A DNA stretch of 64,000 bases from Leucoraja ocellata (taxonomy: Eukaryota): the NCBI GenBank assembly GCA_036785375.1, contig JAWMAR010000049.1, positions 1,674,001 to 1,738,000 on the forward strand, written 5' to 3'. Shown piece by piece: positions 14,237-57,924 of this stretch (position 1 is the first letter of the stretch; the number at the start of each line of letters is the position of its first letter). Under the pieces are notes generated by a model. That model saw only the letters and a program-made list of their open reading frames with translations, did not search any database and was not told the DNA's origin. The translations under genes and the position numbers were made by a program.

Positions 14237-14476
14237 ACATTGTCAAGAGTTAAGAGTGTTTTATTGTTGTATGTATTGAAGCAGAACAGTGGATTTCTGA
14301 ATTACAGCAGCACAACAGTTCTGTAAAGATAGTACACTGCAAACACCATATTAAACAACCTGGTATCCACTAGATTCTGATCATTAAAAATTGTGCTGAC
14401 CATAAAAAGCCTAATAGATGGGAAGATGGTTAATGGAGAACTTCTACCATACTTAAACATCAGACATTTCCTAACT

Positions 14477-14910
14477 GAAGATAGACACAAAATGCTGGGT
14501 AATTTAGAACGGAGACGAGGAAACACTTTTTCTCACGGAGAGTGGTGAGTCTGTGGAATTCTCTGCCTCAGACGGCGGTGGAGGCGGGTTCTCTGGATGG
14601 TTTCAAGAGAGAGCTAGATAGGGCTCTTAAAGAGAGCGGAGTCAGGGGATATGGGGAGAAGGCAGGAACGGGGTACTGATTGTGGATGATCAGCCATGAT
14701 CACATTGAATGGCGGTGCTGGCTCGAAGGGCCGAATGGCCTACTCCTGCATCTGTTGTCCATTGTCTAATTCAGAGGAACAGGCATCACTATTCATGAAC
14801 AGGCTGTCTACTCCTTCTATCCAGAGATGCTGAGTCTCTAACAGAGATGTTGAGTTACTCCAGCATTTTGTGTCTATCTTTAGTGTAACCAGCACCTGCA
14901 GTTTCTTCCT
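14477..14910. mobile_element. Penelope hairpin element with nested CR1 3' end (~14505-14767)
   Basis: PLE arm gctgggtaatt is interrupted and resumes taattcagagg. The insert is a CR1 3' UTR. Confidence 0.7.
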
Positions 14911-15131
14911 AACCATTTTCTGACAACTGGAATGAACAGCACTCGTCGATATGGTGCAGGTGGGGTCTCCAAGGTGAGAGGATTGGTGAGGAGGATACAG
15001 ACAAGATTATGCCTGTTCCCAGGTGATTCCACTACGAGAGTATACAAGCAAGTGTGTCTGTATGTGTACGTCCATGCACAACAGTTTGGGCTGCAGTCAT
15101 ACCGGGCTTCCTCACCTCTCGTCTCAAGATG

Positions 15132-15259
15132 TTTAAGAAAGAACCGCAGATGCTGGAAAAATCGAAGGTCGACAAAAATGCTGGAGAAACTCAGCGGGTG
15201 AGGAAGATCTATGATGATGCCTCACCCGCTGTTTCTCCAGCATTTCTGTCTACCTTCTA
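15132..15259. mobile_element. Penelope-derived hairpin mini-element with collapsed loop
   Basis: TSD gtctcaagatg at 15121-15131 and 15260-15270. Confidence 0.85.
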
Positions 15260-15629
15260 GTCTCAAGATGGTGGTTTTTAGTGTGTAATGGCCACTCCAT
15301 TTTACCAGAAGTCACACACAGAGACATCTTCAACTCCTCAGAAAATACATTAACAACAGCAGCAGCTACATGCAGACTTTACCACATTGTTTTGGTCACA
15401 CTTGCATGTTAATCAGTAAGCTGCCTACCACACCCCATTTCACACGTTTAACCACTGAAGATAAGTGTGCTGAGAGGACACTGCACAACAAACAAAACCT
15501 TGAAGGAAGAATGACAAAGAATACTGTAATAAATACAAACATTAATTTCTTCTACTTAATGCCTCATAGCACTAAAATGATCAAATTCTCTGAAGCAGAA
15601 TTGTCTATTTTCATAGTGCAAAGTCGTAC

Positions 15630-16600
15630 GGTCATAAGGAATAGGAGTAGAATTAGGCCATTTGGCCCATCAAGACTACTATGCCATTCAATCATGGCTG
15701 ATCTATCTCGCCCTCCTAACCCCATTTGCCCCATTAGACACCAGTACTAATCAAGAATCTATCCATCTCTGCTTTAAATATATCCACTGACTTGGCCTCC
15801 ACAGCCTTCTGTAGCAAAGGATTCCACAGATTCACCACCTTCTGACCATAGGAATTTCTCATCATCTCCTTCCTAGAAGAACGCCCTTTAATACTGAGGC
15901 TATGACCTAGACTCTCCCACTAATGGAACCATCATCTCCACATCCACTCTATCCAAGCCTTTCACTATTCTGTATGTTTCAATGAGGTCCCCCCTCATTC
16001 TTCTAAACTAGCAAGTACAGGCCCAGTGCCTACATATTCCTGGGATCATTCTTGTAAACCTCCTCTGGACCCTCTCCAGAAACAGCACATCCTTAAACAG
16101 GTATGGGGTCCAAAATTGCTCACAATATTCCGAATGCGGAAGATAGACAAAAATGCTGGAGAAACTCAGCGGGTGAGACAGCATCTATGGAGCGAAGAAA
16201 ATAGGTAATGTTTCGGGTCGAAACAGACATTATTCCAAATGTGGCCTTATAGATCCTCAACATTACATCCCTGTTTTTGTATACATGCCCTCTTGAAATA
16301 AATGCTAGCAGTTACAATAGACAATGGACAATAGGTGCAGGAGTAGGCCAATAAGCCCTTCGAGCCAGCACCACCATTCAATGTGATCATGGCTGATCAT
16401 CCCCAATCGGTACCCCGTTCCTGCCTTCTCCCCATATCCCCTGACTCCGCTATTTTTAAGAGCCCTATCTAGCTCTCTCTTGAAAGCATCCAGAGAACCT
16501 GCCTCCACCGCCCTCTGAGGCAGAGAATTCCACAGACTCACCATTCTCTGTGAGAAAAAGTGTTTCCTTGTCTCCATTCTAAATGGCTTACTCCTTATTC
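15630..16600 (-). mobile_element. CR1 fragments with nested PLE fragment (~16140-16225)
   Basis: CR1 3' end and ORF2 C-terminus on the minus strand (RKHFFSQRMVSLWNSLP…DAFKRELD). PLE insert flanked by tattcc(g/a)aatg(c/t)gg. Confidence 0.8.
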
Positions 16601-17115: not shown

Positions 17116-18087
17116 GGCCAGCAGCCATACATGTGGTCAAGGCATTCCCTCAATGTATCGACAAATTAGTTCGTTACCAGGCAGTGCAAGGTCAAATATA
17201 TTGATTTACTTTGGAATCCAACAGGCCACAGTGGAGAGCATAGACTTGCTTGTGCAAGAAGGAAGGCACTGGTGAACTATTGCCCATTTCATACAGCAAG
17301 CAAGTGCCCACATAGCCACAGGATGTCTGCTATTGTACTGGTTATGATGCTAGAATCATGATTCAGATACACATCCTGCTGGTTCACAGACTGGTTGCAA
17401 TTCCACCAGAACAACAACAGGAAATTTAAATTCAGCTAAATTTATCAATCTGGAATAAAAAGCTCGCAACCAGGAAGCCAGCAGTTGAATTCCGTGGAAT
17501 ATTTATCAATTATATATATTGGATTATCAGTTCATTTTAATGCTGTTTCCTAAGACTTGTCTGAATAGCAATTTTTCATTTCAAATGTTTAACAAATATA
17601 CAGGAATTTAAATATAATGTACACAAAGTATATGTACAACAATCACAAGAACTATGTCTGCCATGAGAGCATTTTGGGTTGTCAAAATATTGTTTACTGC
17701 CTAGAAAGAAAAGCCACATGAATGAAAATAAACTGTAAGGGAAGTTCATAAATTCAACTTAAAAAGCACAGCTTTCAATCCAGACTGTGCTGAACCTTGT
17801 CAAGATGCCCTTGGGTTGTAATGATTGGTGGTTTTGCTTCTGGAAGAAATGCTGCTGCTCTTTCCATTTGACTTATTGAACAGCGTGTGGTTGTTACAGT
17901 GAACCAAGCAAGAAACTGCACTTCCAAAACAGCACCATTTCTGAATTGTTCAGACATTCTCTCTCTTACCTTCTCTCTCGCTCTCTCTCCCTCTCAAATT
18001 CATTTTGTTGTACATACAGTTTACCTTAAGAAAATTATGTTTGCAGATTAGGTAAAGTGATGAGCGTGACTGTGACTCTAAATCAAA

Positions 18088-18325
18088 TGTTTAAGAAGGA
18101 ACTGCAGATGCTGGAAAAATCAGAGTTAGACAAAAATGCTGGAGAAACTCAGCGGGTGAGGCAGCATCTATGGAGCGAAGGAATAGGTGACGTTTCGGGT
18201 CGAGACCAAAAAACCACCATCTTGAGATGAGAAGGTAGACAAAAATGCTGGAGAAACTCAGTGGGCGAGGCAGCATCTACGATGCTGCCTCGCCCGCTGA
18301 GTTTCTCCAGCATTTTTGTCTACCT
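18088..18325. mobile_element. Composite Penelope mini-element carrying a copy of the 15.2-kb locus
   Basis: pLTR fragment, then 19 nt of the 15.2-kb flank, then a hairpin. Flank duplication tgactctaaat (18073, 18327). Confidence 0.85.
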
Positions 18326-18715
18326 ATGACTCTAAATAAGACTCTTTTGGTCTATCTCAAAGCACCAATGAGGCTTTGCAGCGGGTTCAATCCTGACCTT
18401 GGGTGCTGGCTTGTGGAGTTTGCATGTTCTCACTTGTGACTGCATAGGTTTCCTCCCACATCCCAAAGATGTGCAGTTAATCGGCCCTCTGTAAATTGCC
18501 CCTCGTGTGTGGGAATGGATGAGAAAGTGGGATAACATAGAAGTAGAGTGCGAGCAGGTGCCCGAAGGTCGCCGTGAACTCGATAGGCCGAAGGACCCAC
18601 TTCCATGCTGTATCTCTAAATTAAATGAAATGAATTAGTTTAATTGTAATTATTTGTGTATAAAATCACGAGAGGAATAGATTGGGTAGACACAGAGTCT
18701 CTTGGCCAGAGTAGG

Positions 18716-21085: not shown

Positions 21086-21858
21086 AAATTTGAGGTTTGC
21101 TTTGTCAAATGATACATCAGGTAAATGATGAATGAACACAATTATGCCAGCTGCTGAAAATCACAAGATTCCTATTCCTGGATTTTCATCACCAAGAAAT
21201 ACAAGAATGTTGGAGCTAATGTTGCAGAGGCCAGACAACTAGGACATTGCTCTGGGCACAAATGTTCCAGACACACTGAAGTAAACTGTTTCACTCCTTG
21301 TTATTTTAGTAACTTGTACATGGGAACAGTCTATAAAAAGCAGTCCCCTATTTATCATGTCCCATTTAACTAGTTCAAACTGTGTTGGCAATTTACATGC
21401 AAGCAGGTCGACTTGCACTTCAGTCCGTCCATTGGTATATTCTGTGCCCATCAAGAGCAGGCCGACTATATTTAGTTCTAGTGTTCAAACTGGATTTCCA
21501 TCGCAGTGGTGAACAGTCTTGTGTCCCAAAGACAATTTGTCCTAGGAATAGTAATAATGAAATAAACTCTTGACACATTTCTGATACAATCATTGAACCC
21601 TTTCAAACATTACTTTTCTAGGAAGCCGATAAGAACATGACTAGAATAACGATGGTTCAGCAGGCGTATGTTTGCTCCAAAATACAGTGCACAACTTGCA
21701 TTTCTCCATAGAATATTGATGTCCGCAATCCCCTTCACATCAGTCTATGGTAACTATAGAAAATTCAAACTAGCACCTACTCCCTGCATTCTAATTATTT
21801 TTCGGTGTATGTGCGACCGTGTCAAATTTTAGTCCATAGCGTTAACTCTTGGTAAAAC

Positions 21859-22370
21859 ACAGAGTGCTGGAGTAACTCAGCGGGTCAGGCAGCATCTATG
21901 GAGAACATGGATAGGTGACGTTTCACAGAGTGCTGGAGTAACTCAGCGGGTCAGGCAGCATCTGTGGAGAACATGGATAGGTGACGTTTCACAGAGTGCT
22001 GGAGTAACTCAGCGGGTCAGGCAGCATCTATGGAGCTAAGGAAATAGGCAACGTTGCCTATTTCCAGAAGGATTTCGGCCCGAAAAGTTGCCTATTTCCT
22101 TAGCTCCATAGATGCTGCTGCACCATAACTCAGCGGATCAGGCAGCATCTGTGGAGAACATGGATAGGTGACGTTTCACAGAGTGCTGGAGTAACTCAGC
22201 GGGTCAGGCAGCATCTCTGGAGAATATGGATAGGTGACATTTCAGGTCGAGACCCTTCGGAACCCATCCCAACCCAAAACATGGACTATTAATGTCCTGC
22301 AAAGAAGCCGCCTGAGTTACTCCAGCACTTTGCGTTTGGCTCAGGATTACAGTACCTGCAGTTCCTTGCC
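21859..22370. repeat. 66-bp tandem array derived from PLE pLTR, with a nested hairpin of another PLE subfamily
   Basis: Unit acagagtgctggagtaactc…gtgacgtttc starts at 21859, 21925, 21991 and 22177. Confidence 0.85.
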
Positions 22371-23345: not shown

Positions 23346-24107
23346 AGGGCCTGTCCCACTTACGCGATTGTTTCGGGGACTTGCCGGCACCCATCATGGT
23401 CGCAAACAGGCCGCAGGAAATTTTCAACATGCTGAAAATCCAGCGGCGACCAGAAAAAGGAACGACTCTTTGGGCGACTACTCAACACCAAACAGGCGTC
23501 ACCCCGCGACTGCGACTGCGGGGTGACGCCTGTTTGGTGGTGAGTAGTCGCCCAAAGAGTCGTTCCTTTTTCTGGCCGTCGCTGGATTTTCAACATGTTG
23601 AAAATTTTCGGCAACTTACTGCGACAATGACGGGTGCCGGCAGCTCGCCGAAAAAAAATCACAATAAGTTAGGTCTTTATTCTCTGGAGCGCAGAAGGTT
23701 AAGGGGGGACCTGATAGAGGTCTTTAAAATGATGAGAGGGATAGACAGAGTTGATGTGGACAAGCTTTTCCCTTTGAGAATAGGGAAGATTCAAACAAGA
23801 GGACATGACTTCAGAATTAAGGGACAGAAGTTTAGGGGTAATATGAGGGGGAACTTCTTTACGCAGAGAGTGGTGGCGGTGTGGAATGAGCTCCCAGTGG
23901 AAGTGGTGGAGGCAGGTTCATTAGTATCATTTAAAAATAAATTGGATAGGCATATGGATGAGAAGGGAATGGAGGGTTATGGTACGAATGCAGGCAGGTG
24001 GGACTAAGGGGAAAAAATTTGTTCGGCATGGACTTGTAGGGCCGAGATGGCCTGTTTCCGTGCTGTAATTGTTATATGGTTATATGGTTATAAGTGGGAC
24101 AGGCCCT
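23346..24107. mobile_element. Palindromic PIF/Harbinger MITE split by a CR1 insertion
   Basis: TIRs agggcctgtcccactta / taagtgggacaggccct. About 160-bp arms around a centre near 23510. Confidence 0.85.
23670..24089 (+). mobile_element. Young CR1 (HER1-like) 3' fragment
   Basis: Uninterrupted LGLYSLERRRLRGDLIEVFK…TRGH…FFTQRVVAVWNELP. (atatggtt)n tail. ataagt at both junctions. Confidence 0.92.
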
Positions 24108-28178: not shown

Positions 28179-28830
28179 ACCATCATAGAAATATTCATTC
28201 TTCTTAAGTGGTAATCAAAATATGCAAATATTTATCGTTTGAGAATTGATTTTCCTGCTCGTAATAAACTGGAAGGGAAAACAGAGCAATTTCATTTTTT
28301 TGTTTTAAAGAAAATACAAAACTGAAGATTAAATCAAAGTTCAGGAGCATAATGTTCTTATATCTAGATGTCTATCAATGTAAATGAAAGGATTCTCAGC
28401 CATTTTCAAAGGTAATTTAAACCAGTAAACCAGGTTATCTGTATCAGCAATTTTCTCCCCTGTACATGTACTTCTCGTATTGCCGGATATGGAAGACCAA
28501 CCTGTCAACCATCTCCTCACCCAGGCTGGATTATGCAGGGCTGTTCCATATTGTCAAAAAGAAAATGGATTTGGCATCTCTAAAAGTGAAGGAATAAAGC
28601 CATAACCTGTTAGAGGTTACAAATTTGTGTCAAAATGTAGGACTGAGATGAGGAAAATTGTCTTCACTCAGATAGTTGTGAATCTGTGGAATTTTCTGCC
28701 ACAGAAGGCAGTGGAGTCCAATTCACTGGCTGTTTTCAAGAGAGTTAGATTTAGCTCTTGAGGCTAAAGGAATCAAGGTATATGGGGAAAAAGCAGGAAC
28801 GGGTACCGATTTTTAGATGATTTGCCATGA

Positions 28831-29667
28831 ATCACTGATGGTGACAAGTCAGAGTATCGACCGATTGACCAAATGGTGCCAGCACAACAACCTGGCTCTC
28901 AACACCAGCAAAACCAAGGAACTGATTGTGGACATTGGAAGGGGTAGGATAGGGACCCACAATCCTGTTCATATCAATGGAACGAGGGTGGAAAGGATCA
29001 AGGACTTCAAATTCCTGGGCGTGCATATTTCCAAAGATCTTTCCTGGTCCCTGCACACTGATGCAATTATAAAGAAAGCACATCAGCGCCTCTACTTCCT
29101 GAGAAGATTACGGAGAGTCGGAATGTCAAGGAAGACTCTCTTGAACTTCTACAGGTGCACAGTAGAGAGCATGCTGACCGGTTGCATCGTGGCTTGGTTC
29201 GGCATCTTGAGCATACAGGAGCGGAAAAGAATGCAGAAAGTTGTGACCACTGCCCAGTCCATCATCGGCTCTGACCTCCCCACCATCAAAGGGATCTATC
29301 GCAGTCGCTGCCTCAAAAGGACTGCCAACATCATCAAGGACCCACACCATCCTGGCCACACACTCATATCTCTGCTGCCATCAAGTAGAAGGTACAGGAG
29401 CCTGAAATCTGATACAACCAGGTTCATGAACAGCTGCTTCCCCACAGCCATCAGGCTATTAAACTCACCATCAAACAAACTCTAAACTATAACAGCCTAT
29501 TGCACTTTATCTGTTTATTTATTTATGTGTATATATATATATATGGTCTATGCTATATGGACACAGTGAACTGTTCTGTATTTATGCTTACAATACTCTG
29601 TTGTGCTGCAGCAAGGAAGGATTTCATTGTCCTATCTGGGACAGATGACAATAAACCCTCTTGACTT
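28831..29667 (+). mobile_element. Rex1/Babar-clade LINE, 5'-truncated RT C-terminus, inserted into a CR1 3' end (28636-29740)
   Basis: 222-aa ORF WCQHNNLALNTSKTKELIVD…FKFLGVHIS…KKAHQRLYFLRRL…FYRCTVES. (cttga)n tail. CR1 gccatga|tcatattgaatgg is split. Confidence 0.9.
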
Positions 29668-32496: not shown

Positions 32497-33150
32497 AACC
32501 CAGGTACTTTCCCCTGCAACCGCAGGAGATGTAACACCTGTCCCTTTATCTCCCCCCTCGACTCCATCCAAGGTCCCAAACAGTCTTTCTAGGTGAGGCA
32601 ACTCGCACCTCCTCCAACCTCATCTACTGTATCCGTTGTTCCAGGTGTCAACTTCTCTACATCTGCGAGACCATGTGCAGGCCCCGCGATCGTTTCACTG
32701 AACACCTCCACTCAGTCCATCTTAACCTACCCGATCTCCCTGTGACTCAGCACTTCAACTCCCCCTCCTATTCCCAATCTAATATTTCTATCCTGGGCCT
32801 CCTCCATTATCAGAGTGAGGCCCAGCACAAATTGGAGGAACAGCACCTCATATTTCGCTTGGGTAGTTTACACCCCAGCGGTATAAACATTGACTTCCCT
32901 AACTTCGGATAGCCCTTGCTTTCCCCCTCTCTCCATCCCCTTCCCAGTTCTCCCACTAGTCTTACTGTCTCCGCCTACATTCTATCTTTGTCCTGCCCCC
33001 TCCCCTGACATCAGTCTGAAGAAAGGTCTCGACCCGAAACGTCACCCATTTCTTCTCTCCAGAGATGCTGCTTCACCCGCTGAGTTACTCAAGAGTTTTG
33101 TGTCTACCTTTGATTTAAACCAACATCTGCAGTTCTTTCTTACATAAACA
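32497..33150 (+). mobile_element. Penelope-like element (Neptune-like) 3' part: degenerate Zn-finger plus GIY-YIG endonuclease and pLTR
   Basis: GTFPCNRRRCNTCP, SSNLIYCIRCSRCQLLYI(C)ET…DRFTEH, EAQHKLEEQHLIFRLGSLHPSGINIDF, with a stop and frameshifts. Confidence 0.9.
33016..33043 (+). ncRNA. Minimal hammerhead ribozyme motif in the PLE pLTR
   Basis: CTGAAGA-AAGGTCTCGACCC-GAAAC-GTC about 100 nt after the GIY-YIG stop. Confidence 0.7.
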
Positions 33151-33891: not shown

Positions 33892-36165
33892 AAACTGAAG
33901 AACAGCGTCCATCTCATCTTCCTAACGGGCTCTATTTTGAATTCTCTAATTTAGCCGACTTGCCTTTTCTGTTTGTCTGTATCAGAGCTGCCCGTCAGAT
34001 TGATCTGTGATTTGAGCTCGAGTTTTTCTCCCCATGTTCCACAGCCTTGCCATTGACAACACAGCAGCACTATGTGCCTCTAAAAGCCATATTAAACCAT
34101 TTGGTCTTGCACTAATCACACCACCTGCTCCACCTACTCTGCAACTTATTTTCTCCCTGAAGAAAATCAGTCTGCAGAAGGGTCCCGACCCAAAACGTCA
34201 ACTGTCCATTCCTTCCACGGATGCTGCCTGACCCACTCAGTTCCTCCAGCACTTTGTTTTGCTCATGATTCCAGCACCTGTGGTTTCACATGTCTATTAT
34301 TTTCTCCCTTTTCCAGTTCTGAAGAAGGATTTTTGGAATTGAAATGTTAACTGTGTCTATTTCCGCGTATATGCTACCTGACCTGCTGAGTGTACCCAGC
34401 ATTTTGTTTATAGCTTGTATTTTGATATCCATTTTTAACAACATTGCATGATGCAATAGGTTTATTATTGTACTCATTGGGCAATGGGCTTTTGCAATGA
34501 ATTATATGAACACAAAGTTCACCGTATGATGATCTTATGTAGGGTCAATGATGTCATATCCTGACAGGATAAAGATCAGCAGCAACTTGTTTGCAATAAA
34601 GGGTGTGGCAAGATCACACACTTCCTATGCTCTTGCAAAACATAGAAACATTGAAGTAGATTTTCTTGATTTTAATATTCAGGTTAAAAAAGATAAAATG
34701 TTGATGAATTCATGAAAAGGAGATTCCTACAGAGAGGTATAATAAAGTGCTGTACAACACCTGTAAGCTGTCATTAGTGAGCAATTGCTGAGAAGATCTT
34801 TCCCATGGATGGGGAAATCTGAAGTTAGGGGCATTTTCTCAGAATATAAAGTGGTCCTGTTGAGATTGGGATGAGGAGGCATTTTAGAGTGTTGTAAATC
34901 ACCAGAGAGCAGTGGCTCTTGCGTTACGGTACATTCAAGACTGAGACTGATTTTTTTGCGTATAGAGGAATCAGGGATTACTCTTGATCAAGAAGATACT
35001 TAAGTTAAGAGCAAACACCAGATCAACCATACAATCTACCCTCCGCTCCTATTTCTTGTGCTTAAAATGTATATTACAACATGTCTGAGAGTTTATTGGT
35101 TTGAATGTCTCAGTATCACACACAGATCAGACCCAAGGAACTGGCCCCATGCGTGGTTGAAGGAAATTCTAGTTGAAGATTGGGACAAGGATTTGGAAGG
35201 ATCTGAAAATAGACATTAGGATTTTGTGCCATGGCCTGCACAGAATAGCGATGTTAGCTTAGCAAGACATTCTGCTAAATTTCTAAGCCAAAAATACAAC
35301 ACAAATTAAATCTTAATTAATAGTTAAGCTTTTTAGTAGGATGAAAAAGAGGCTTTAAGTTTTCAGTAAGTGCATCAATCTTTGCTATTCTTTTCAGTCC
35401 TCTTAAAGCTGTTAAAGATAGCAGAGTCAGGGGACATGGGGAGAAGGCAGGAACGGGGTACTGATTGGGGATGATTCATGTTCACATTGAATGGCGGTGC
35501 TGGCTCGAAGGGCCGAATGGCCTATTCCTGCACCTATCGTCTTCACATTGTGTTTTTGATTTTTGTTTTTGGACTGAATTCTGTTTTTAATTTGTGTTTT
35601 TGTGATGTCTTTATTATTTATTTTATTCTGATTATATGTTTATATTTCCTGTTAACCTATGTAAGGTGTCCTTGAGATGTCTGAAAGGCGCCCAATAAAT
35701 AAAATTTATTATTATTATTACAGAAAATTCTAATTTCTATTTTCAAATCCTTCAAAAACCTTGTTGCAGCCTCCGACTACAATTTCTTTCAACTAAGTAA
35801 CAGGTCTGGATTGTTGGGTCTGATCCATTTCCAGGTTCATGGATAGGACAGGTTTAGAGGAATATGGGCCAAACACAGACAGGTGGTGTCAGTGTAAATG
35901 GGACACGTTGGTCAGCATGGGCAACTTGGGCCAAAGGGCCTGTGTCCACGCTGTATGACTCTGTGACTCTATATCTGACGGCTGAATAATTGTCCTTTCT
36001 GACCATGGGTTGTCAACATGAAGCATTTTCTCTGTCCTCAGATGGTGCCTGACCCGTTGAATGTTTCCAGCCAACATTTTGTTTATACATCTGACTTTCA
36101 TGTAGTGCTCATGCAAGTCAGAAATGAATTCTAGTGGAAAGAAATTAAAATAAACCAATTTTAAG

Positions 36166-40935: not shown

Positions 40936-43127
40936 CGTTGCATTTTCCCCCACTCACCTTAAACCTATACCCTCTAGTTTCCCTCCCCGTGAAAAAGATT
41001 CTGTCTATTTATGGATGTCTCTCATAATTTTACAAACTTTATCAGGTATCACCTGAGCCTCTGACGCTCCAGAGAAAGTAATCAAAGTTTGTCCAACCTT
41101 GTAGCTATTCATTCAAGTCCTAATGGACACGTTTCATTGGACCATGACCAATAACAAATAGCTAATACAAGGAAATGCAGTTGCTAGTTTACAAAACAAG
41201 ACACAAAGTGCTGGAATAACTCAGTGGGTTAGGCAGCATTTCTGGAGCACATGGATAGGTGATGTTTCAGATCAATGTATTTCACAATCTGAAGAAGGGT
41301 CCAAAACGTTTCACATCAATGTTCCTCCCTTCCCACAGGGGATGATAGAGAATCGGGATCACAATAATCCTCTTACAAGTTTTTCACATCCTCGTATCTT
41401 CTGCTCAGTTTTAACTCTGTGTTCCCTTGTCCTCGAGGGAAATAGAAAGGATGAATGTACAATCGTTTCCCCATGCTAAGTGAAATCAAGAACTAGAAGC
41501 CATAGGTTTAAGGTGAGAGGGGTAAGATTCAATAGGAACCTGACACACAATATACCCCCCCCCCCCCCATATACAAAGGGGTGGGGATATTGAATGTAGT
41601 TGAGACAGGGAGAACTACAATCATAAAAGCCATTTATACAGGCACATGGATAGAAAAGCCTAGCTTGCATGGGATTTCTTGGTCCGTATGAGTGTGTGAA
41701 CCAAAGGACCCGTTTCCAAGCTGTGACCATGTAAAAGCATATCTGAATAAGTAAAAGGGGAAACATGTGCATTTATGTGGCACCTGGAAAAAAGGAATTC
41801 CACTGTATGCATGTACATGTCAATTGAACCATACCTCATCTCTCAAATGTGAAATCGCATGAAATGTGCTGCCTTGTGTAAACAAATCCACCATTTTAAG
41901 TAGAATGGTTGCAAGGATCATACACACATGTCCCATAGGAACCGCAGTGCTTTTTAAAGTACAAGATATAAAAACATCTGAACTCGGCCATTAAAGGACA
42001 CAATACTGAAATCTACAGATACAACCTTGGGAAGTGCGATTATCTATGAAGAGAAGAATAAATGCACTCAGAATAACAAACATTAGCACATTGAGCAAGC
42101 ATTAAATTTTAGTTTAGTTTATTGACACATGTACCGAGTTACAGTGAAAAGCTTTTGTTGTGTGCTAGCTAAACAGTCAGCAGAAATACATTACATGATT
42201 AATGTTCCTTGAAATATAACTGACAGGAAGATACATTGTTAAAGGTAATAAGAATTACATAGGAAACATGAAAAGTAGAAAGTTATATAAAGAGAGAGAA
42301 ATTTCTTACAAGTGATTAGTTCAAAGCATCACAGCAAACTTCTATAATCCAGTTGGAAATATATATGCGGTGCAAGATCTTTAGGAATGATATTAGGTTT
42401 ACGGAGACTCTTAGAACCGAGTACTGAGGATGTTCTTAGTGATAAGAGGCTTTGTTCTAATGAAAATCCTGTATTAAACTGCAAGTTGTGATGATCTGAC
42501 AAAGTCCATAATGAAGTGGGTGACCAGTAATTTAATTAATTAATTAATTAAAACTCAACCAGGTGGGGAGTGATGGTGTGCTGTTTATGAGTAAAACAAT
42601 TTCAGCTTACAAGCTCAACTTCAACAGGATCATATGCTCTGGAGTTTGGGCCAAAATAACTTGGAACTCAGCCAAATCGTTAATTGAACTAAACCGATAG
42701 CTTATTCTTGATCTTATCCATTTGCAAAGGTCACAGTGTTGTTGTTGGACTGCGAGGAGAATGATATTGTGCGTCAGCAAATGTTCAACGTAAAAAGCCT
42801 TTCATAAAAGGTGAAAGGAATCATAGACAGGAAGTGTGGAAGAAAATCTATATGGCTTTGATCCTTGCGTTAGTCTCATGAAGCTGAAGTTTATCTGAAT
42901 AAAATGCCAGTGCATTATGAAATATGCAATCAAAGAAATCCCCCCCTCATCTTCCAAGTTCTCCCACCTATCTTAGCTTGGACTTAATTTTACTGAGACC
43001 CATCACCAACTGCATTGCTGTTAACACTGTAATCAAAAACAGACCACTGTTTAACTGCAACGATTGATGGACTGCATAAAGGTACAAGTTACACTGGTGA
43101 TCCGCAAAACTCCGCGGAAGTGTTAGT

Positions 43128-43510: not shown

Positions 43511-45120
43511 AGTCCTAGCAACATCGTTATCCTTCTGTTTGTGATGTCCTACGCTGAGGGATGGATAATCTTCGTGCCTGACCCGACAATTTAGAACCAG
43601 TGAAAAAGGAGTGCTTTCAAGTTGCCCGACTATCAACAGAAGGTGCTAGACATGACCGTTTATTGCCCTCACGATAACAGCTTGGACGGAAAACCTGGCT
43701 GAACAGAAAAGTAGACAAACTTTAAACTCAGGGCTCTGCATCAGTATGCAACTAAGAATGCAAGCAATACTTTTATGGCAACAGACCTGGACTAAATTTA
43801 ACCTCAACACCCCTGGCAGTAATCCTGACGGTGAGAGAGGCTATCAAGGGTAAAATTTGAGGTCATTTGGGCCAATATAGATCGATTAGAGAATGCAAAC
43901 AAGGATTGGGTCTCCCTCATCTGATAGAAGATTTTTGATTACATAATTAAGAAGGGTAAAAATGAGATTGACATTGACATGGTAAATGTAATATTCCAAA
44001 ACTACACTTGATAAAGTACTGCAGTATAAGAATACCATCAAGATTGAAGGTCAACCGAGGCTGTAGCATCATGGATAGAAAACTGGTAAAGTAGCAAAGC
44101 AGCAACGAGAGGTAGCACTTGGACTGTAGGGAAATGTACCGTGCAGTTCTCCAGGCTCGGTCCTTTTCTTCATATGCATTGATCAATTTCTACTTGATTC
44201 TACACAGCACAAGTTCCAATGCTGCAGATAACACAGAACTTGGAAGCACAGCTAATTTTAAGGCAATATGGAGAAGCTGGTGGAATGGGTCATGCAGATG
44301 TACTGAGAAACATGGAGTCATATGTTGGCCAAATGAGGCAACACATAAACTAGCAGCTACATTTCTTGAAGGGGAATAAGAACAGAGCTGGAGGTATAGT
44401 TTGGTTGAAAGTGAAAAGACTGGTTGAGAAAGTGGTTACAAATGCACTGGGACTTACCTGGATGATATTTTTATGGACTTCCAGAAGGCATCCATGAAAT
44501 GGTTAATTTAAAAAGTGCATGGGTGTGTGTGTGTGTATTAGTGTCTATGTGTGTATATGTAGTGTGTATAAAGGGATACTTTACCAGAACAAGTCCAAGA
44601 ATGAGGGACTTCAGTTATGTGAATTGACTGGAGAAGCTAGAGTGTTCTTAATGGAACAGAGTCACAAAGACATTTCATCCAGATATTTCAAATCATAAAA
44701 GATTGGGCAAGTAGATAAAGGGATCTCTTCCCCCCCCCCCCACACACACACACACATCTGCTTATTAACAGCTCATTAACTCTTTCTATTTAGACAATAT
44801 TCATATCATTTGGTTGGGTTAAAAGTACATCGCCTCTTGTAGACTCGCCTTACTACAGCTATCAACAATTCTGCACCCGTCACTAGGTCTGTCAATATGC
44901 CTACACACACACACACCCCCCCATGCTCTTTATTTATTTTATTAACCATTTCATAAGGCTTGATGGATGCCTTCTGGAAGTCCATAAAAATATCATCCTT
45001 AGACATGCACTCGTCTATCATGCTAGCTAGTTCCCCAAAATAATCAAGTACTTCGATGCGAGGGAGGAGTTAAGAAATGACTGCAATTCATTGGGCAGAA
45101 CTACCATCAGGAAAGACACA

Positions 45121-47575: not shown

Positions 47576-47686
47576 TATAATCTAGGTTTGCAATAGATTT
47601 TGAATAAATGAGCAATTAAACTTTCCATGAAGTGAAAATGATCACAATTTTTCACATTTGAACCAACCATCACATTGGAGAAATTA

Positions 47687-49335
47687 CAGTGCCTTCCATA
47701 ATGTTGTGGGACATGTATTTATTTGTCCCAGTACTCCACAATTTGAGATTTGTAATAGAAAAAATAATCACTTGTGGTTAAAGTGCATATTGTCAGATTT
47801 TATTAAAGGCCATTTTTATACATTTTGGTTTCACCATGTAGAAATTACAGCGCTGTTTATACATAGTCCCTCATTTCAGGGCACCATAATGTTTGGGACA
47901 CATGGATTCACAGGTGTTATAATTGCTCAGGTGTGTTTAATTGCCTCCTTAATGCAGGTATAAGAGAGCTCTCAGCACCTAGTCTTTCCTCCAGTCTTTC
48001 CATCACATTGGATACTTTTATTGCTGTTTATCAACACGAGGACCAAAGTTGTGCCAATGAAAGTCAAAGAAGCCATTATGATACTGAGAAACAAGAATAA
48101 AACTGTTAGAGCATCAGCCAAACCTTAGGCTTACGAAAATCAACTGCTTGGAACATCATCAAGAGGAATGAGAGCACTGGTGAGCTTACTAATCGCAAAG
48201 GGATTGGCAGGCCAGGGAAGACCTCCACAGCTGATGACAGAAGAAAAATTCTCTCTATAATAAAGAAAAATCCACAAATACCTGTCCGACAGATCAGAAA
48301 CGCTCTTCAGGAGTCAGGTGTTGATTTGTCAATGACCACTGTCCGCAGAAGACTTCATTAACAGAAGTACAGAGGCTACACTGCAAGATGCAAACCACTG
48401 GATAGCCGCAAAAATAGGATGGCCGGGTTACAGTTTGCCAAGAAGTACTTAAAAGAGCAACCACAGTTCTGGAAAAAGGTCTTGTGGACAGATGAGACAA
48501 AGATTAACATATATCAGAGTGATGGCAAAAGCAAAGTATAGAGGAGAGAAAGAACTGCCCAAGATCAAAAGCATAGTACTTCATTTTGAAACACGGTGGT
48601 GGGGGTATTATGGCCTGGGCATGTACGGCTCCTGAAGGTACTGGCTCACTTATCTTCATTGATGATACAACTGCCGATGGTAGTAGCATAATTAATTCTG
48701 AAGTGTATAGACACATCCTATCTGCTCACGTTCAAACAAATGCCTCAACTCATTGGCCGGCAGTTCATTCTACAGCAAGACAATGATCCCAAACATACTG
48801 CTGAAGCAACAAAGCAGTTCTACAAAGCTAAAAAATGGTAAATTCTTCAGTGGCTAAGTCAATCACCTGATCTGAAGCGAATTGAGCATGCCTTTTATAT
48901 GCTGAAGAGAAAACTGAAGGGGACTAGCCCCCAAAACAAGCATAAGCTAAAGATGGCTGTAATACAGGCCTGGTAGAGCATCACCAGAGAAGACACCCAA
49001 CAACTGGTGATGTCCACGAATCAGACTTCAAGCAGTCATTACATGCAAAGGATATGCAACAAAATACTAAACATGACTACTTTCATTTACATGGCATTGC
49101 TGTGTCCAAAACATTATGGTGCCCTGAAATAAGGGGGGGGGGGGGGGGAGAACTATGTATAAACACTGCTGTAATTTCTACGTGAAACCACAATGTATTA
49201 AAATGGCCTTTATTAAAATCTGACCATGTGCACTTTAACCACATGTAATTTTTTCCTATTACAAATCTCAAATTGTGGAGTACAAAGGCAAATAAATAAA
49301 TGATGGGTCTGTCCCAAACATTATGGAGAGCACTG
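47687..49335 (+). mobile_element. Full-length Tc1-family transposon with IR/DR ends
   Basis: TA flanks, CAGTG…CACTG ends, about 215-bp TIRs each with outer and inner ccataatgttt-ggac repeats. Confidence 0.95.
48036..49070 (+). pseudogene. Tc1 DD34E-type transposase pseudogene
   Basis: GRPGKT, VLWTDETKI, KHGGGGIMAWAC, QQDNDPKHT, WLSQSPDLKRIEH, GYATKY*. Probable start mutated to ACG, frameshifts, internal TAG near 48974. Confidence 0.92.
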
Positions 49336-49534
49336 TATATATTCCATTCCAGCTTCCTTAATAAGAGGTAACCTATTCACTGGTCCAATAATATTGCTAT
49401 GAACTTACTGCGGAAAGTAAACAGGACTCAGTGGAGATATTTACTTCTTGATGTCGTTAACACTTACCCAGAACGATTTGCAGCCTATATACGAGGCATG
49501 AGTGTTATGCCACGGATAAATGATATACAATTGT

Positions 49535-50196: not shown

Positions 50197-51050
50197 TTTA
50201 AAGTATCAGCATACTCTTCCCTTTTTATTCAAGGAAAAGTGAACATTTTGAAATATTAGACAAAAAAAGTTATTTTGTTGCCTGCTGAACTGAAAGCTGA
50301 TAGCAGCCCATTAGCTGGAATTCATTTACTGTAAAACACAATGCTCTGTTCATTTAATGTTGCATAATTACAGAAGAATGTCTTGGTTGTAACATATAAA
50401 GGCCTAGGTCAGATGCAATCTTAACACCAAACACACTGCTCGAGTACCGCTGAAATTAATTCAAGAATATGATTTCAAAACAATGGATTTGTTTCAATGG
50501 ATCAGATGTGGTTGCAATCCAAAAAAGCCCAACGTCCAATTAGTCTCATTAAGCACTTATTGCAGCCTGTATAGTTTTGGCAAATAATTGTAAAGACAAT
50601 TCCATTACCATTTTAAAGTCTAAAGCCATCTTTTAGGTAAAATAATGGAACAACCTTGCGGATTTTGGGTTTGTTTTATAATTTACATATTGGTGTTAAA
50701 AAGTAAATTATAAAACTATCCGATAGTCTACAGCTAAGAAGCAGAGCATCATTTATGTTTCTGATCTCTAACCTCCTCACATGGCCTTTCACTATTTTCG
50801 CCGCCACGTGCTTATCAAAGTTTGCCTTACGATTTCTATGCTATTCACCAAACCACCAGCTGATGATGGTTCGGGGATAATTAGGATCGAGAGCGCTAAC
50901 CAGTTGATGTACTAGTGACTTTCATGTATTCTCTGCTACCGGCTGCAATATTCCTTGGCTGTGATGACATTTGCTTTGCTTTTGCCTAATATTTCAAAAT
51001 GTTCACTTCTCCTTGAAAATAAAAAGGGAAGAGTATGCTGATACTTTAAA
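50197..51050. repeat. About 70-bp inverted repeat pair (50197-50264 / 50981-51050)
   Basis: tttaaagtatcagcatactcttccctttttatt…aagtgaacattttgaaatattag and its reverse complement. Confidence 0.85.
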
Positions 51051-54885: not shown

Positions 54886-55833
54886 TCATAATATAATAAC
54901 TGAGGAATTAAGCATTCAGGCCACAAGGGTTGTTTTGCAGTAACAATTATCACATTATGAAAATGACCTGCTATTAAATGCAACATAACTTTCCACTGTG
55001 AGGTTTCTGGCAACAAAAATCAACAAGTTGTTTTTTGTTTTTTTAATTACAGAAAATGCTGTGAAAAAAGACACAGCATCTGTGGCAAGTGAAGCGGTTA
55101 ACGTTTCAGGTCTGAGGCCTTTCATCAGGTCTGGCCCTCCAGCATTTAGTTGATTTATTTCTGATCTCCTGCACCTGCAGTTCTTTTGATTGTCATTTTT
55201 ACAAGGCCAATGAGAGCACACATTGTCTACCATGAGCAATGAGTTATGTCGGAATGTCAAGCTGTTGGGCTTGATGTTAGCAACACTGCGTGCAATAAAC
55301 ACTGGAAAATCTGGCAGCAAATTCTGGATGATTGTCATTTGACGCAGAGTACAGGAACACCAAGTTCATGCGGGGAAGACAAGCAGTAGAACCACATTTA
55401 AATATTCTGCAAATCAAAAGTAGAAATCAGATTACTCTCTTAAATGCCAAGTTCTTGCATCATAAATCATTTATCACTTCCTAACCGCATCCCACATTCC
55501 AGCCCAAATGTTTGATATTCTTGTCCAACAGAAGCAACTTCTCCAACTTTTGTCCTCAGTAGCATTTTATATCCCAGCTCCTGCCAATCTGGACCACCAT
55601 CTTCCCCCCATTGTCCCAGTGCAACGTACTCTACCACAGAAGCCCCAACATGACAAGAGAATCACCTTACTTTCACTACATACCTCACAGTTCCTCTTCT
55701 TCACCAGTCCCCTTATCTACCCATCCTCCTTACACGAGACTGAGAGAAGAACACAATGAATCCTAGACTACCGCATATATTATTTACTGGGGGCAACAGT
55801 TTCATTTTCTTTCTGATCACACACCCCCATATC

Positions 55834-56360
55834 ATAGAAACATAGAAAATAGGTGCAGGAGTAGGCCATTCGGCCCTTCGAGCCTGCACCGCTATTCAAT
55901 ATGATCATGGCTGATCATCCAACTCAGTATCCTGTACCTGCCTTCTCTCCATACCCCCTGATCCCTTTAGCCACAAGGGCCACATCTAACTCCCTCTTAA
56001 ATATAGCCAACAAACTGGCCTCAACTACCTTCTGCGGCAGAGAATTCCAGAGATTCACCACTCTGTGTGAAAAATGTTTTCCTCATCTCGGTCCTAAAAG
56101 ATTTCCCCTTTATCCTTAAACTGTGACCCCTTGTTCTGGGCTTCCCCAACATCAGAAACAATCTTCCTTCATCCAACCCCTTAAGAATTTTGTAAGTTTC
56201 TATAAGATCCCCCCTCAATCTTCTAAATTCTAGCGAGTACAAACCAAGTCTATCCAGTCTTTCTTCATATGAAAGTCCTGACATCCCAGGAATCAGTCTG
56301 ATGAACCTTCTCTGTACTCCCTCTATGGCAAGAACGTCTTTCCTCAGATTAGGAGACCAA
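55834..56360 (-). mobile_element. CR1 (HER1-like) 3' fragment
   Basis: LSYEERLDRLGLYSLEFRRLRGDLIETYKILKG…TRGHSL. (tttctatg)n tail. Confidence 0.9.
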
Positions 56361-56728
56361 ATCTTATCTTTAGAACTATAGAATAATTTATATTAATCAT
56401 TTGAACTTGTTCCCACTTTTTTCCCCAGTAACAAATATAAGAACAAAGACTTCAATAGCAAGAGCAGCAGCCTGCTCTGGTTACCACTAGATGGTAGCAC
56501 AATAAAAAGCAACATTTTCCATCCACTTGTTCATAAACATCTCACCTCAGTAACAAGCAATTATAATTTCTGCGCAAGTCCCTTGGCCTGTTATATTTGA
56601 CCCAGTGCATTGAAATTTGCTATTCTAAAACTAATTAACAAATATTTTCTTCATGCCTTTAGTTTTTCTGCTAGCATTTGTCCAGTTCCTTTGTGTTCTG
56701 ATGAAGAGCTTTCAGCTTGAAATGTTAA

Positions 56729-57026
56729 GGAAGGAACTGCAGATGCTGGTTAACATCAAAGACAGACACAAAATGCTGGAGTAACTCAGTGGGACAGGCA
56801 GCATCTCTGGATAGAAGGAATGGGTGATGGATCACTTTTGTTGCGTGCCAACTCGTCAGCAGAAAGACAAGGAGTGAATTGCACTGGGACAGTGAAGGGA
56901 AGATAATGTTCCTGATTGGCAGGAGTTGTGTCATCAACAGTTGGAGGAGTTGCTTCTGTTGACTCATTCCTTCGATCCAGAAATGCTGCCTGTCCCGCTC
57001 TTACTCCAGCATTCGGTGTCTTTCTT
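56729..57026. mobile_element. Penelope hairpin element with captured sequence in the loop
   Basis: Perfect 15-bp TSD agcttgaaatgttaa (56714-56728, 57027-57041). Non-PLE insert ~56830-56963. Confidence 0.85.
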
Positions 57027-57134
57027 AGCTTGAAATGTTAATTGTGTTCCTCGTTCCATGGAGATGCCTGGCCCGCCAAGAGATTCCAGCATTTATTTTT
57101 TCAGATTTCCAGAAACCATAGTTCTTTGTTTCTC

Positions 57135-57924
57135 TGCATTCGCAGAGATTATCCGAATTTGGACTACTCCAAATGTGATGATCTACAGGACAATCTTAAT
57201 GGGAAAGTAGTGGGCAGAAAGACATGTCACGCGTGGTTTGAAGAGCAAAAACTCGTAGTTTACAATGCCAAAATTGAAAAGTTGAGGAAAAACAAGGTGT
57301 ACAGAGTTGCTTATTGGTTACAATCTGAGGAGTATGATGATGCTACTGATTGTGATATGCCAATGTACCAGCTAGCAACTGATCTTTTCCATAAAGACTT
57401 GGTCTTTTGCTAGAAATTGTAATTTCTTTACCTATCGGTTGCGGACTCACAGCATATAATACAATAATATTAAAGTATCACATTTTTGAGAATATCACAT
57501 TTTTGAATTTTCAAGGCAGTCTGGATGTTTATTACTATTTCCGTCACAAGGGTCAATTTTGTAATTAGCTACAATTAGGTAACTAACTAATTATATTATT
57601 TAATTTCAGGTCATCCAAGTAAGATGTTTCATATTTGTTTCAGAATGCTTTAATCTATAATATCTGAAAATTTCATTCAGTTCTCTTAATTTTTAAGAAA
57701 GTTATGGTCTTTTGACTGTCCTCGATCACAGCTTTTGTATTAAGGCAATGGAAAAGCAATAGGGAACGTGATGCTAATTTCCGAGTATGAAAATGGCCAT
57801 AACTTTTTTAATACTGAAGATACGAAAGTGAATTAGGTATCAAATTAAAGTTATTTTTATGCTCTGATGGGATAAATTACAGGCTTGATTTTTTTAAATC
57901 TCAAAATTTTGTAACATTCCCACT
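57135..57924 (+). mobile_element. Probable DNA-transposon remnant: ORF C-terminus plus AT-rich end
   Basis: Stop-free frame to TAG at 57413, followed by an AT-rich tract with inverted aaagttatgg/ccataacttt motifs. Superfamily not identified. Confidence 0.45.

Follow-up and report, generated by a model that had tools for sequence, protein, structure and literature searches.

The 64-kb stretch of DNA analysed here (the window) carries, at 56729-57026, two inverted Penelope arms with other sequence between them, which raises the question of where this sequence came from and whether it arrived together with the arms. An earlier note on the locus had proposed that the loop was filled with nearby DNA by switching between several templates during one insertion, that elements of this kind do so repeatedly and that the mechanism is under-described. 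The evidence set out below gives good support for a short, old, Penelope-type insertion made in a single event, at a locus without evident function.

Structure and family of the insertion

On the + strand, the insertion reads long arm, five junction bases, LINE piece, inverted copy and short arm, and its parts and surroundings are as follows:

56695..57135, + strand: older, decayed Penelope tail, the target
56714..56728, no strand: left TSD copy, 15 bp, AGCTTGAAATGTTAA
56729..56829, - strand: long Penelope (pLTR) arm, 3' end outward
56729-56758: 30-nt 'tail' of the long arm, missing from the short arm
56824..56835, no strand: micro-palindrome of 12 nt (5-bp stem, 2-nt loop) at the arm/fill junction
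56835..56870, - strand: dispersed LINE-type 3' tail piece, 36 nt, with the polarity of the long arm
56872..56961, - strand: inverted copy (the fill) of 55526-55631
56962..57026, + strand: short Penelope arm
57027..57041, no strand: right TSD copy, 15 bp, AGCTTGAAATGTTAA

The two TSD copies match at 15/15 positions (score 15), a level not approached by 300 random position pairs, none of which scored above 11 (best 11), and the claim that one perfect 15-bp TSD bounds all parts was thus borne out. When joined, the flanks 56695-56728 and 57042-57135 gave a single-piece alignment to family copies, indicating that the target is an older Penelope tail and that everything between the TSDs was inserted. 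The insertion struck this older tail at its ribozyme-core motif, and both of its own arms stop just short of the hammerhead-type core motif. The arms (56759-56825 and 56962-57026) are inverted relative to each other and identical at 57/65 positions with a 2-bp gap; the best match of the short arm in the window is the long arm, at 87.7%, the 23 other copies reaching at most 82%. A strand of this hairpin folds at z=-9.2, which was equalled by 0/200 shuffles, and the insertion itself contains no ORF. The micro-palindrome at the arm/fill junction may be a short snap-back. A high-copy repeat at 57100-57600 contains an ORF end that shares 68-72% identity with three unnamed proteins, none of them with a Pfam hit, and is probably the C-terminus of an unclassified DNA transposase.

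The family to which the arms belong is represented in the window by a reference copy:

32535..33150, + strand: GIY-YIG-like ORF end, then pLTR with hammerhead-type core, then tail

The tail sequence of the long arm follows ORF 32535-32912 by about 95 bp, and an alignment covering 82% of this ORF shows 58% identity to P0007 (RVT_1 and GIY-YIG), indicating that the repeat is the pLTR end of a Penelope; the best named relatives of the ORF are skate and shark proteins, which probably places the genome among the elasmobranchs. The insertion belongs to the Penelope-like elements (EN+ PLE) by three features that were looked for and found, namely a pLTR 3' of a GIY-YIG ORF, inverted pLTRs within one TSD and a tail of 30-40 nt at one end only. 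Among the joints and loose ends listed from the reads, the common ends of the family fall at 56728/56731 and 56759-56765, which are the ends of the two arms here, the short arm ending at the second of them (the equivalent of 56759-56765). We take the motif CTGA.GA...GAAAC in the reference pLTR to be a hammerhead-type core. A core-like motif is visible at 33016-33043, and Rfam at its gathering threshold gave 0 hits in the window; a minimal hammerhead ribozyme motif in the pLTR is described in PMC4209133. The window contains no Penelope RT.

Sources of the captured sequence

The larger part of the loop was traced to DNA upstream of the insertion, from which it is separated today by a further element:

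55526..55631, + strand: source of the fill, single-copy
55833..56363, - strand: later tail, presumably of CR1/L2 type judging from its motifs, between source and insertion

Fill and source are identical at 74/90 positions with one 16-bp gap, and in the core at 69/83 positions (E=1e-11). The local match scored 64, whereas no other site in the window exceeded 24 and none of 60 shuffles exceeded 31, and no third copy of source or fill was present in the 64-kb window. The loop does hold an inverted local copy as had been proposed, at ends 2-3 bp from those first given; the left limit of the fill is ambiguous over 56872-56878. Source and insertion are 1098 bp apart today. The tail at 55833..56363 is absent from sequencing run X11, in which one contig bridges the site, indicating that this tail came later and that the source then lay ~570 bp (567) from the cut. 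A contig of the same run lacks ~70 bp at 55636-55709, a gap that starts 4 bp past the end of the source and is probably a coincidence.

The earlier note had asked that the source be checked for being itself a repeat, and this was done by depth in 4 of 24 sequencing runs (organisms A-D), with contigs placed at 80% likeness. The source bins (55264-55809) showed single-copy depth like that of the flanks in 4/4 runs, with values of about 25-80 and one bin of 5.7 at the X11 gap; bins in CR1 and Penelope sequence reached 10^6-10^7. The objection that the source is a common repeat fails at this sensitivity, and a rare relative near 80% identity is possible. Within the fill, X1 and X3 each gave one single-copy contig at position 56929; X5 and X11 had no depth there and covered the flanks and the left arm, a hole that is uninformative since counts overflowed. 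The left arm was present in 4/4 runs, and no joint skipping the insertion, as expected from an empty allele, was seen among 15 joints listed of about 3000. A search of 1.84 billion proteins with the source gave 2 matches, one of them weak and unrelated. The better one was an artefact of a tandemly repeated protein, and the source was rejected as a coding relic. A pattern scan of metagenomes was also discarded, the 2 loci that it matched having done so by chance.

The rest of the loop has another origin. The 36-nt piece at 56835-56870 matches a dispersed tail family (79% at 191-224, 77% at 42152-42190) with a score reached by 0/2000 shuffles, and a high-depth X11 contig departs from the window sequence at 56870. 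No copy of this family was found within 5 kb, so the loop is not wholly local. The piece had been likened to a Rex/Babar tail, a label that we take to mean the Rex1/Babar LINE. As a dispersed tail it is supported by the shuffles and the further copies; the name was weakly tested, since family copies follow ORF ends that only weakly resemble the Rex-like ORF 28817-29485 (pairwise E=0.01 and 0.32).

The source is unique and lies near the break, features of a locally templated insertion. Microhomology amounts to about 2 nt at the junction of local copy and short arm and is ambiguous at that of LINE piece and local copy. The same loop does not recur in many copies, as the centres of the hairpins in the window differ and the fill contig is single-copy. 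The parts are also compatible in age: fill and source differ at 14/83 sites and the two arms at 8/65 (Fisher p=0.49), while the window differs by 1-3% from contigs of the four runs. Fill and arms being similarly diverged, and far above 1-3%, fits one event that predates those splits. The probability of an intact 15/15 TSD at 12-17% divergence is 0.06-0.14.

Hairpins and local inverted copies across the window

The earlier note had pointed to a second capture at 15-18 kb, and all hairpins were compared by testing 16 head-to-head pairs of arms for a TSD score of at least 9, with the tandem array at 22 kb outside the test. The score was reached in 10/16 pairs compared with 3/300 in the null; the pairs at 2.2, 14.5, 26.6, 40.2, 53.6 and 63.8 kb scored below 9 and were dropped, the left arm at 26.6 kb carrying a TSD of its own. 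In 10/10 TSD-flanked hairpins, a long arm reaching reference position 134-145 is paired with a short one that stops at 101-111, and this pattern is the signature of the one-sided 30-40-nt Penelope 'tail'.

A local inverted fill is present in 2/10 of these hairpins (95% CI 2.5-56%), the second case being real and built as follows:

18084..18323, no strand: second hairpin, 14-bp TSD with 1 mismatch
15166..15280, + strand: source of the 18-kb fill

Here 18209-18326 is an inverted copy of 15166-15280 (E=3e-4, with 19 bp of flank identical), and this source spans flank, TSD, short arm, centre and part of the long arm of another hairpin, 15132-15255. Both captures have an inverted source located on the side of the long arm (chance 0.06), which is what a fold-back on the priming strand predicts. 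A third candidate, 14474-14920, was rejected because its 267-bp fill is a later CR1-type tail nested in the left arm, which resumes beyond it; the fill is equally near to a copy at 25.5 kb (93.7%) and to its neighbour at 16.3 kb (93.6%). The CR1-type tails at 14502-14768, which splits the Penelope arm, and 16318-16584 are 94% identical, inverted and 1.5 kb apart. The statement that these elements repeatedly copy local sequence thus stands for two cases, but as a frequency it is limited to 2/10 hairpins with the wide interval given above.

The window also has three local inverted copies, each of about 70-90 bp, that are not part of Penelope hairpins (at 35.2/35.7, 44.5/44.9 and 50.2/51.0 kb), so the post hoc p value for an enrichment of fills in hairpins is ~0.035, rising to 0.23 when the 18-kb case is left out. 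The first, 35156-35228 / 35721-35793, is a 73-bp inverted copy at 81% directly after a (TTA)n-tailed retroelement end and has no Penelope arms. The second, 44460-44536 / 44907-44998, is 78% identical and lies beside (GT)n/(CA)n tracts; its translation resembles what we take to be a decayed CR1-type RT stretch. The third, 50197-50265 / 50980-51050, is a 71-bp inverted pair, 94% identical, 715 bp apart and without evident TSD, either the TIRs of an element or a young local inversion-duplication, and an imperfect palindrome (50673-50716) lies inside it.

About 25% of the 64-kb window is repeated within itself, and several further arrangements were seen. The array at 21845-22368 consists of 66-bp Penelope tail units, tandem and inverted; in the tandem units the break falls each time at one position close to the ribozyme core, as would follow from serial template jumps. 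At 2590-2776, a short solo Penelope tail has a 13-bp TSD-like match 136 bp upstream; if the match is real, it would enclose some 130 bp of 5' fill for which the window offers no source. A near-perfect 95-bp inverted repeat (94%, 10-nt loop) lies in a CR1-type ORF region at 23413-23612. A Tc1-like element with inverted ends of about 240 bp occupies 47685-49337, and its ORF 48110-48358 matches HTH_Tnp_Tc3_2 (E=8.5e-8).

Possible routes to the capture and their meaning

Taking together the models with two priming ends, with a nascent RNA as template and with a single primer, it is very probable that the capture took place during one insertion. The idea of a single insertion using several templates, one of them local, has held up on the single TSD, the continuous target, the single-copy source and the compatible ages. 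The route that we favour, and to which we give about an even chance, is two-ended target-primed reverse transcription with a jump to a LINE RNA, a fold-back on nearby DNA and end joining. It would start from a 15-nt staggered cut, observed as the TSD. Extension of the left top-strand end from the distal start site would give the long arm; for the short arm, extension of the right bottom-strand end would begin at the proximal site, 30 nt inward of the distal one. The arm ends are observed, and priming at both ends is suggested by in-vitro work on another Penelope. The two arms break off at the ribozyme core, no more than about 4 nt from a common point, and their cDNAs may have stalled there. 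The top cDNA would then have copied 36 nt of a LINE RNA, the polarity of the piece being the same, and after it about 90-106 nt of the top strand then ~570 bp upstream, leaving the inverted copy that is observed. The local copy would have been made by a fold-back on DNA, with the element RT or a host enzyme as polymerase, and the order of these steps is part of the proposal. In the last step, some 2 nt of microhomology, a weak match, may have linked the long-arm cDNA to that of the short arm. The product is a fixed, decaying relic without sign of function.

This two-ended route is further favoured by arm ends that coincide with the family ends, by the pairing of a long with a short arm in 10/10 hairpins and by the fold-back fills known from L1, ZfL2 and R2 junctions. 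Against it stand the number of captures (n=2), the junction microhomologies of 2 nt or ambiguous length, the low probability of the intact TSD (0.06-0.14), the lack of any empty allele among the joints seen and the local inverted copies outside Penelope hairpins. Run-off at the ribozyme cut site was considered as well and is unsupported, several arms beginning 3-8 nt upstream of the expected site; ribozyme cleavage was found unnecessary in PMC11167929.

A single insertion in which the Penelope RT jumped to a nascent RNA running through the locus, such as a minus-strand pre-mRNA, seems rather unlikely. It would suit the 18-kb fill better than the two-ended route does, as this fill crosses a neighbouring hairpin and stops at the internal start site, like a read-through RNA primed there, and one minus-strand transcript, copied by the bottom-strand cDNA, would fit both captures. 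A co-inserted local pre-mRNA is on record once for L1 (PMC10191854). However, no host gene or strand was found among the 150/188 non-repeat ORFs (at least 58 aa) that were scanned; these held no host-gene exons, and their Pfam matches were a Tc1-like transposase, a Rex-like piece and one weak phage-tail match.

We consider it improbable that a single primer and serial snap-back made the whole insertion, with one cDNA producing in turn long arm, LINE piece and local copy and then, folded back on its own arm, the short arm, and with the 30-nt tail difference arising by endonuclease resolution. One top strand could template both inverted parts, and several simple hairpins with symmetric centres and 3-nt loops (11.5, 15.2 and 28 kb) suit snap-back better than two-ended priming. 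Self-priming and endonuclease resolution of the tail have been proposed (PMC3846280 and PMC8557442, respectively), and snap-back of R2 cDNA has been reported (PMC11371274). The fold-back would, however, have to land within about 4 nt of the end of the first arm and, in 10/10 hairpins, to end at the second RT start site, which is a common end genome-wide and a start site in vitro.

Slightly less probable again is a history in two steps, in which a plain palindromic hairpin was inserted first and its tip later broke and was closed by host end-joining with templated pieces. The fill does sit at the centre of an otherwise perfect palindrome, three sites in the window that lack Penelope sequence have inverted local copies of 70-90 bp, and fold-back templated insertions arise at breaks without a retrotransposon (PMC11724301). 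Yet the fill is no younger than the arms (17% vs 12% diverged), the arm tips are not eroded, and the LINE piece, for which there is no local DNA copy, lies in the polarity expected of a cDNA jump. The remaining reading, a dispersed relative of 55526-55631, the TIRs of an old DNA transposon or chance, could draw on the 17% divergence, the 16-bp gap and a contig placement that may miss relatives near 80% identity, but is very improbable given single-copy depth at source and fill, no other match in 64 kb, protein matches limited to a repeat artefact and a weak unrelated one, and a 55526/56961 pair that lacks a TSD around it and has just one of its members within the Penelope TSD.

Parts of the favoured two-ended route are known from other systems, which are compared here from the accessible portions of the papers cited. 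Among Penelope elements, capture of unrelated sequence between solo pLTRs with TSDs is described in rotifers (PMC3846280), and the one-sided 30-40-nt 'tail' with inverted pLTRs is known (PMC3846280, PMC8557442); in those portions, captured spacers are not traced to the flank of the target itself, whereas here the capture was traced to inverted single-copy DNA beside the target, together with part of another LINE. A purified Penelope protein, anole Poseidon PAc, is able to cut and extend the two strands of a target in vitro, with RT start sites on either side of the 30-40-nt tail (PMC11167929). Its two-strand cut and extension, its two RT starts and its AT-rich targets, its own pLTR among them, agree with the present case; it comes from another species, and no template jump to local DNA or other RNAs is described in the portions consulted.

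In L1, 3 fold-backs (0.3%) and 1 combined case, of 52-220 bp, are reported along with the one local pre-mRNA (PMC10191854), 3 insertions with nearby genomic templates and 9 with two RNAs elsewhere (PMC11702581), and two-RNA chimeras have been catalogued (PMC13174262). The likeness to L1 lies in TSD-bounded insertions, local inverted duplications and two-RNA chimeras (PMC10191854, PMC11702581). L1 differs in its enzyme class and in having the fill at the 5' junction of a single element rather than flanked by a pair of arms, and its cases are somatic or experimental at a rate of 0.3%, compared with a fixed germline insertion and an apparent 2/10 here. The 'extra nucleotides' of ZfL2 (PMC4760211) arise when the end of the cDNA, before it is joined, switches to another RNA or primes synthesis on the flank or on the cDNA itself, and the 'snap-back' and 'extra template' junctions of R2 (PMC11371274) reflect the same priming or jump with fills that mostly copy the cDNA itself; both differ from the present case in being engineered cell assays with one-armed insertions. 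Fold-back insertions at double-strand breaks (PMC11724301) are, as here, inverted local duplications primed by microhomology, but in yeast, mostly of 5-34 bp and without retroelement or TSD.

A literature search, mainly of open-access papers, listed no report of target-local inverted capture between Penelope arms, and none of such hairpins in skates or sharks. In the portions of the papers seen, the mechanism is under-described insofar as no Penelope fill has been traced to the flank of its target, but capture between pLTRs and local fills in L1, ZfL2 and R2 have already been reported. The general mechanism is known from other retrotransposons, and what is new is Penelope arms around an inverted, target-local capture.

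A Penelope-specific, high-rate form of this capture is plausible and rests on two cases. We suggest tentatively, and with more doubt than confidence, that the RT jumps to local DNA or nascent RNA after both cDNAs stall, in about 1 in 5 hairpins. How Penelope elements form inverted structures and complete integration is described as unresolved in the accessible text of PMC8557442 and PMC11167929. Hairpins are dense here, 10 with TSDs per 64 kb, and many of them would, if the suggestion is true, constitute a natural record of the steps of Penelope integration. Through counts alone, the side, strand and distance of the fill sources would separate two-ended priming, snap-back, jumps to nascent RNA and later repair. 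Frequent capture, if true, would be an uncounted source of small local inversions, and Penelope would be a major, directional source of short inverted duplications in the genomes of cartilaginous fishes.
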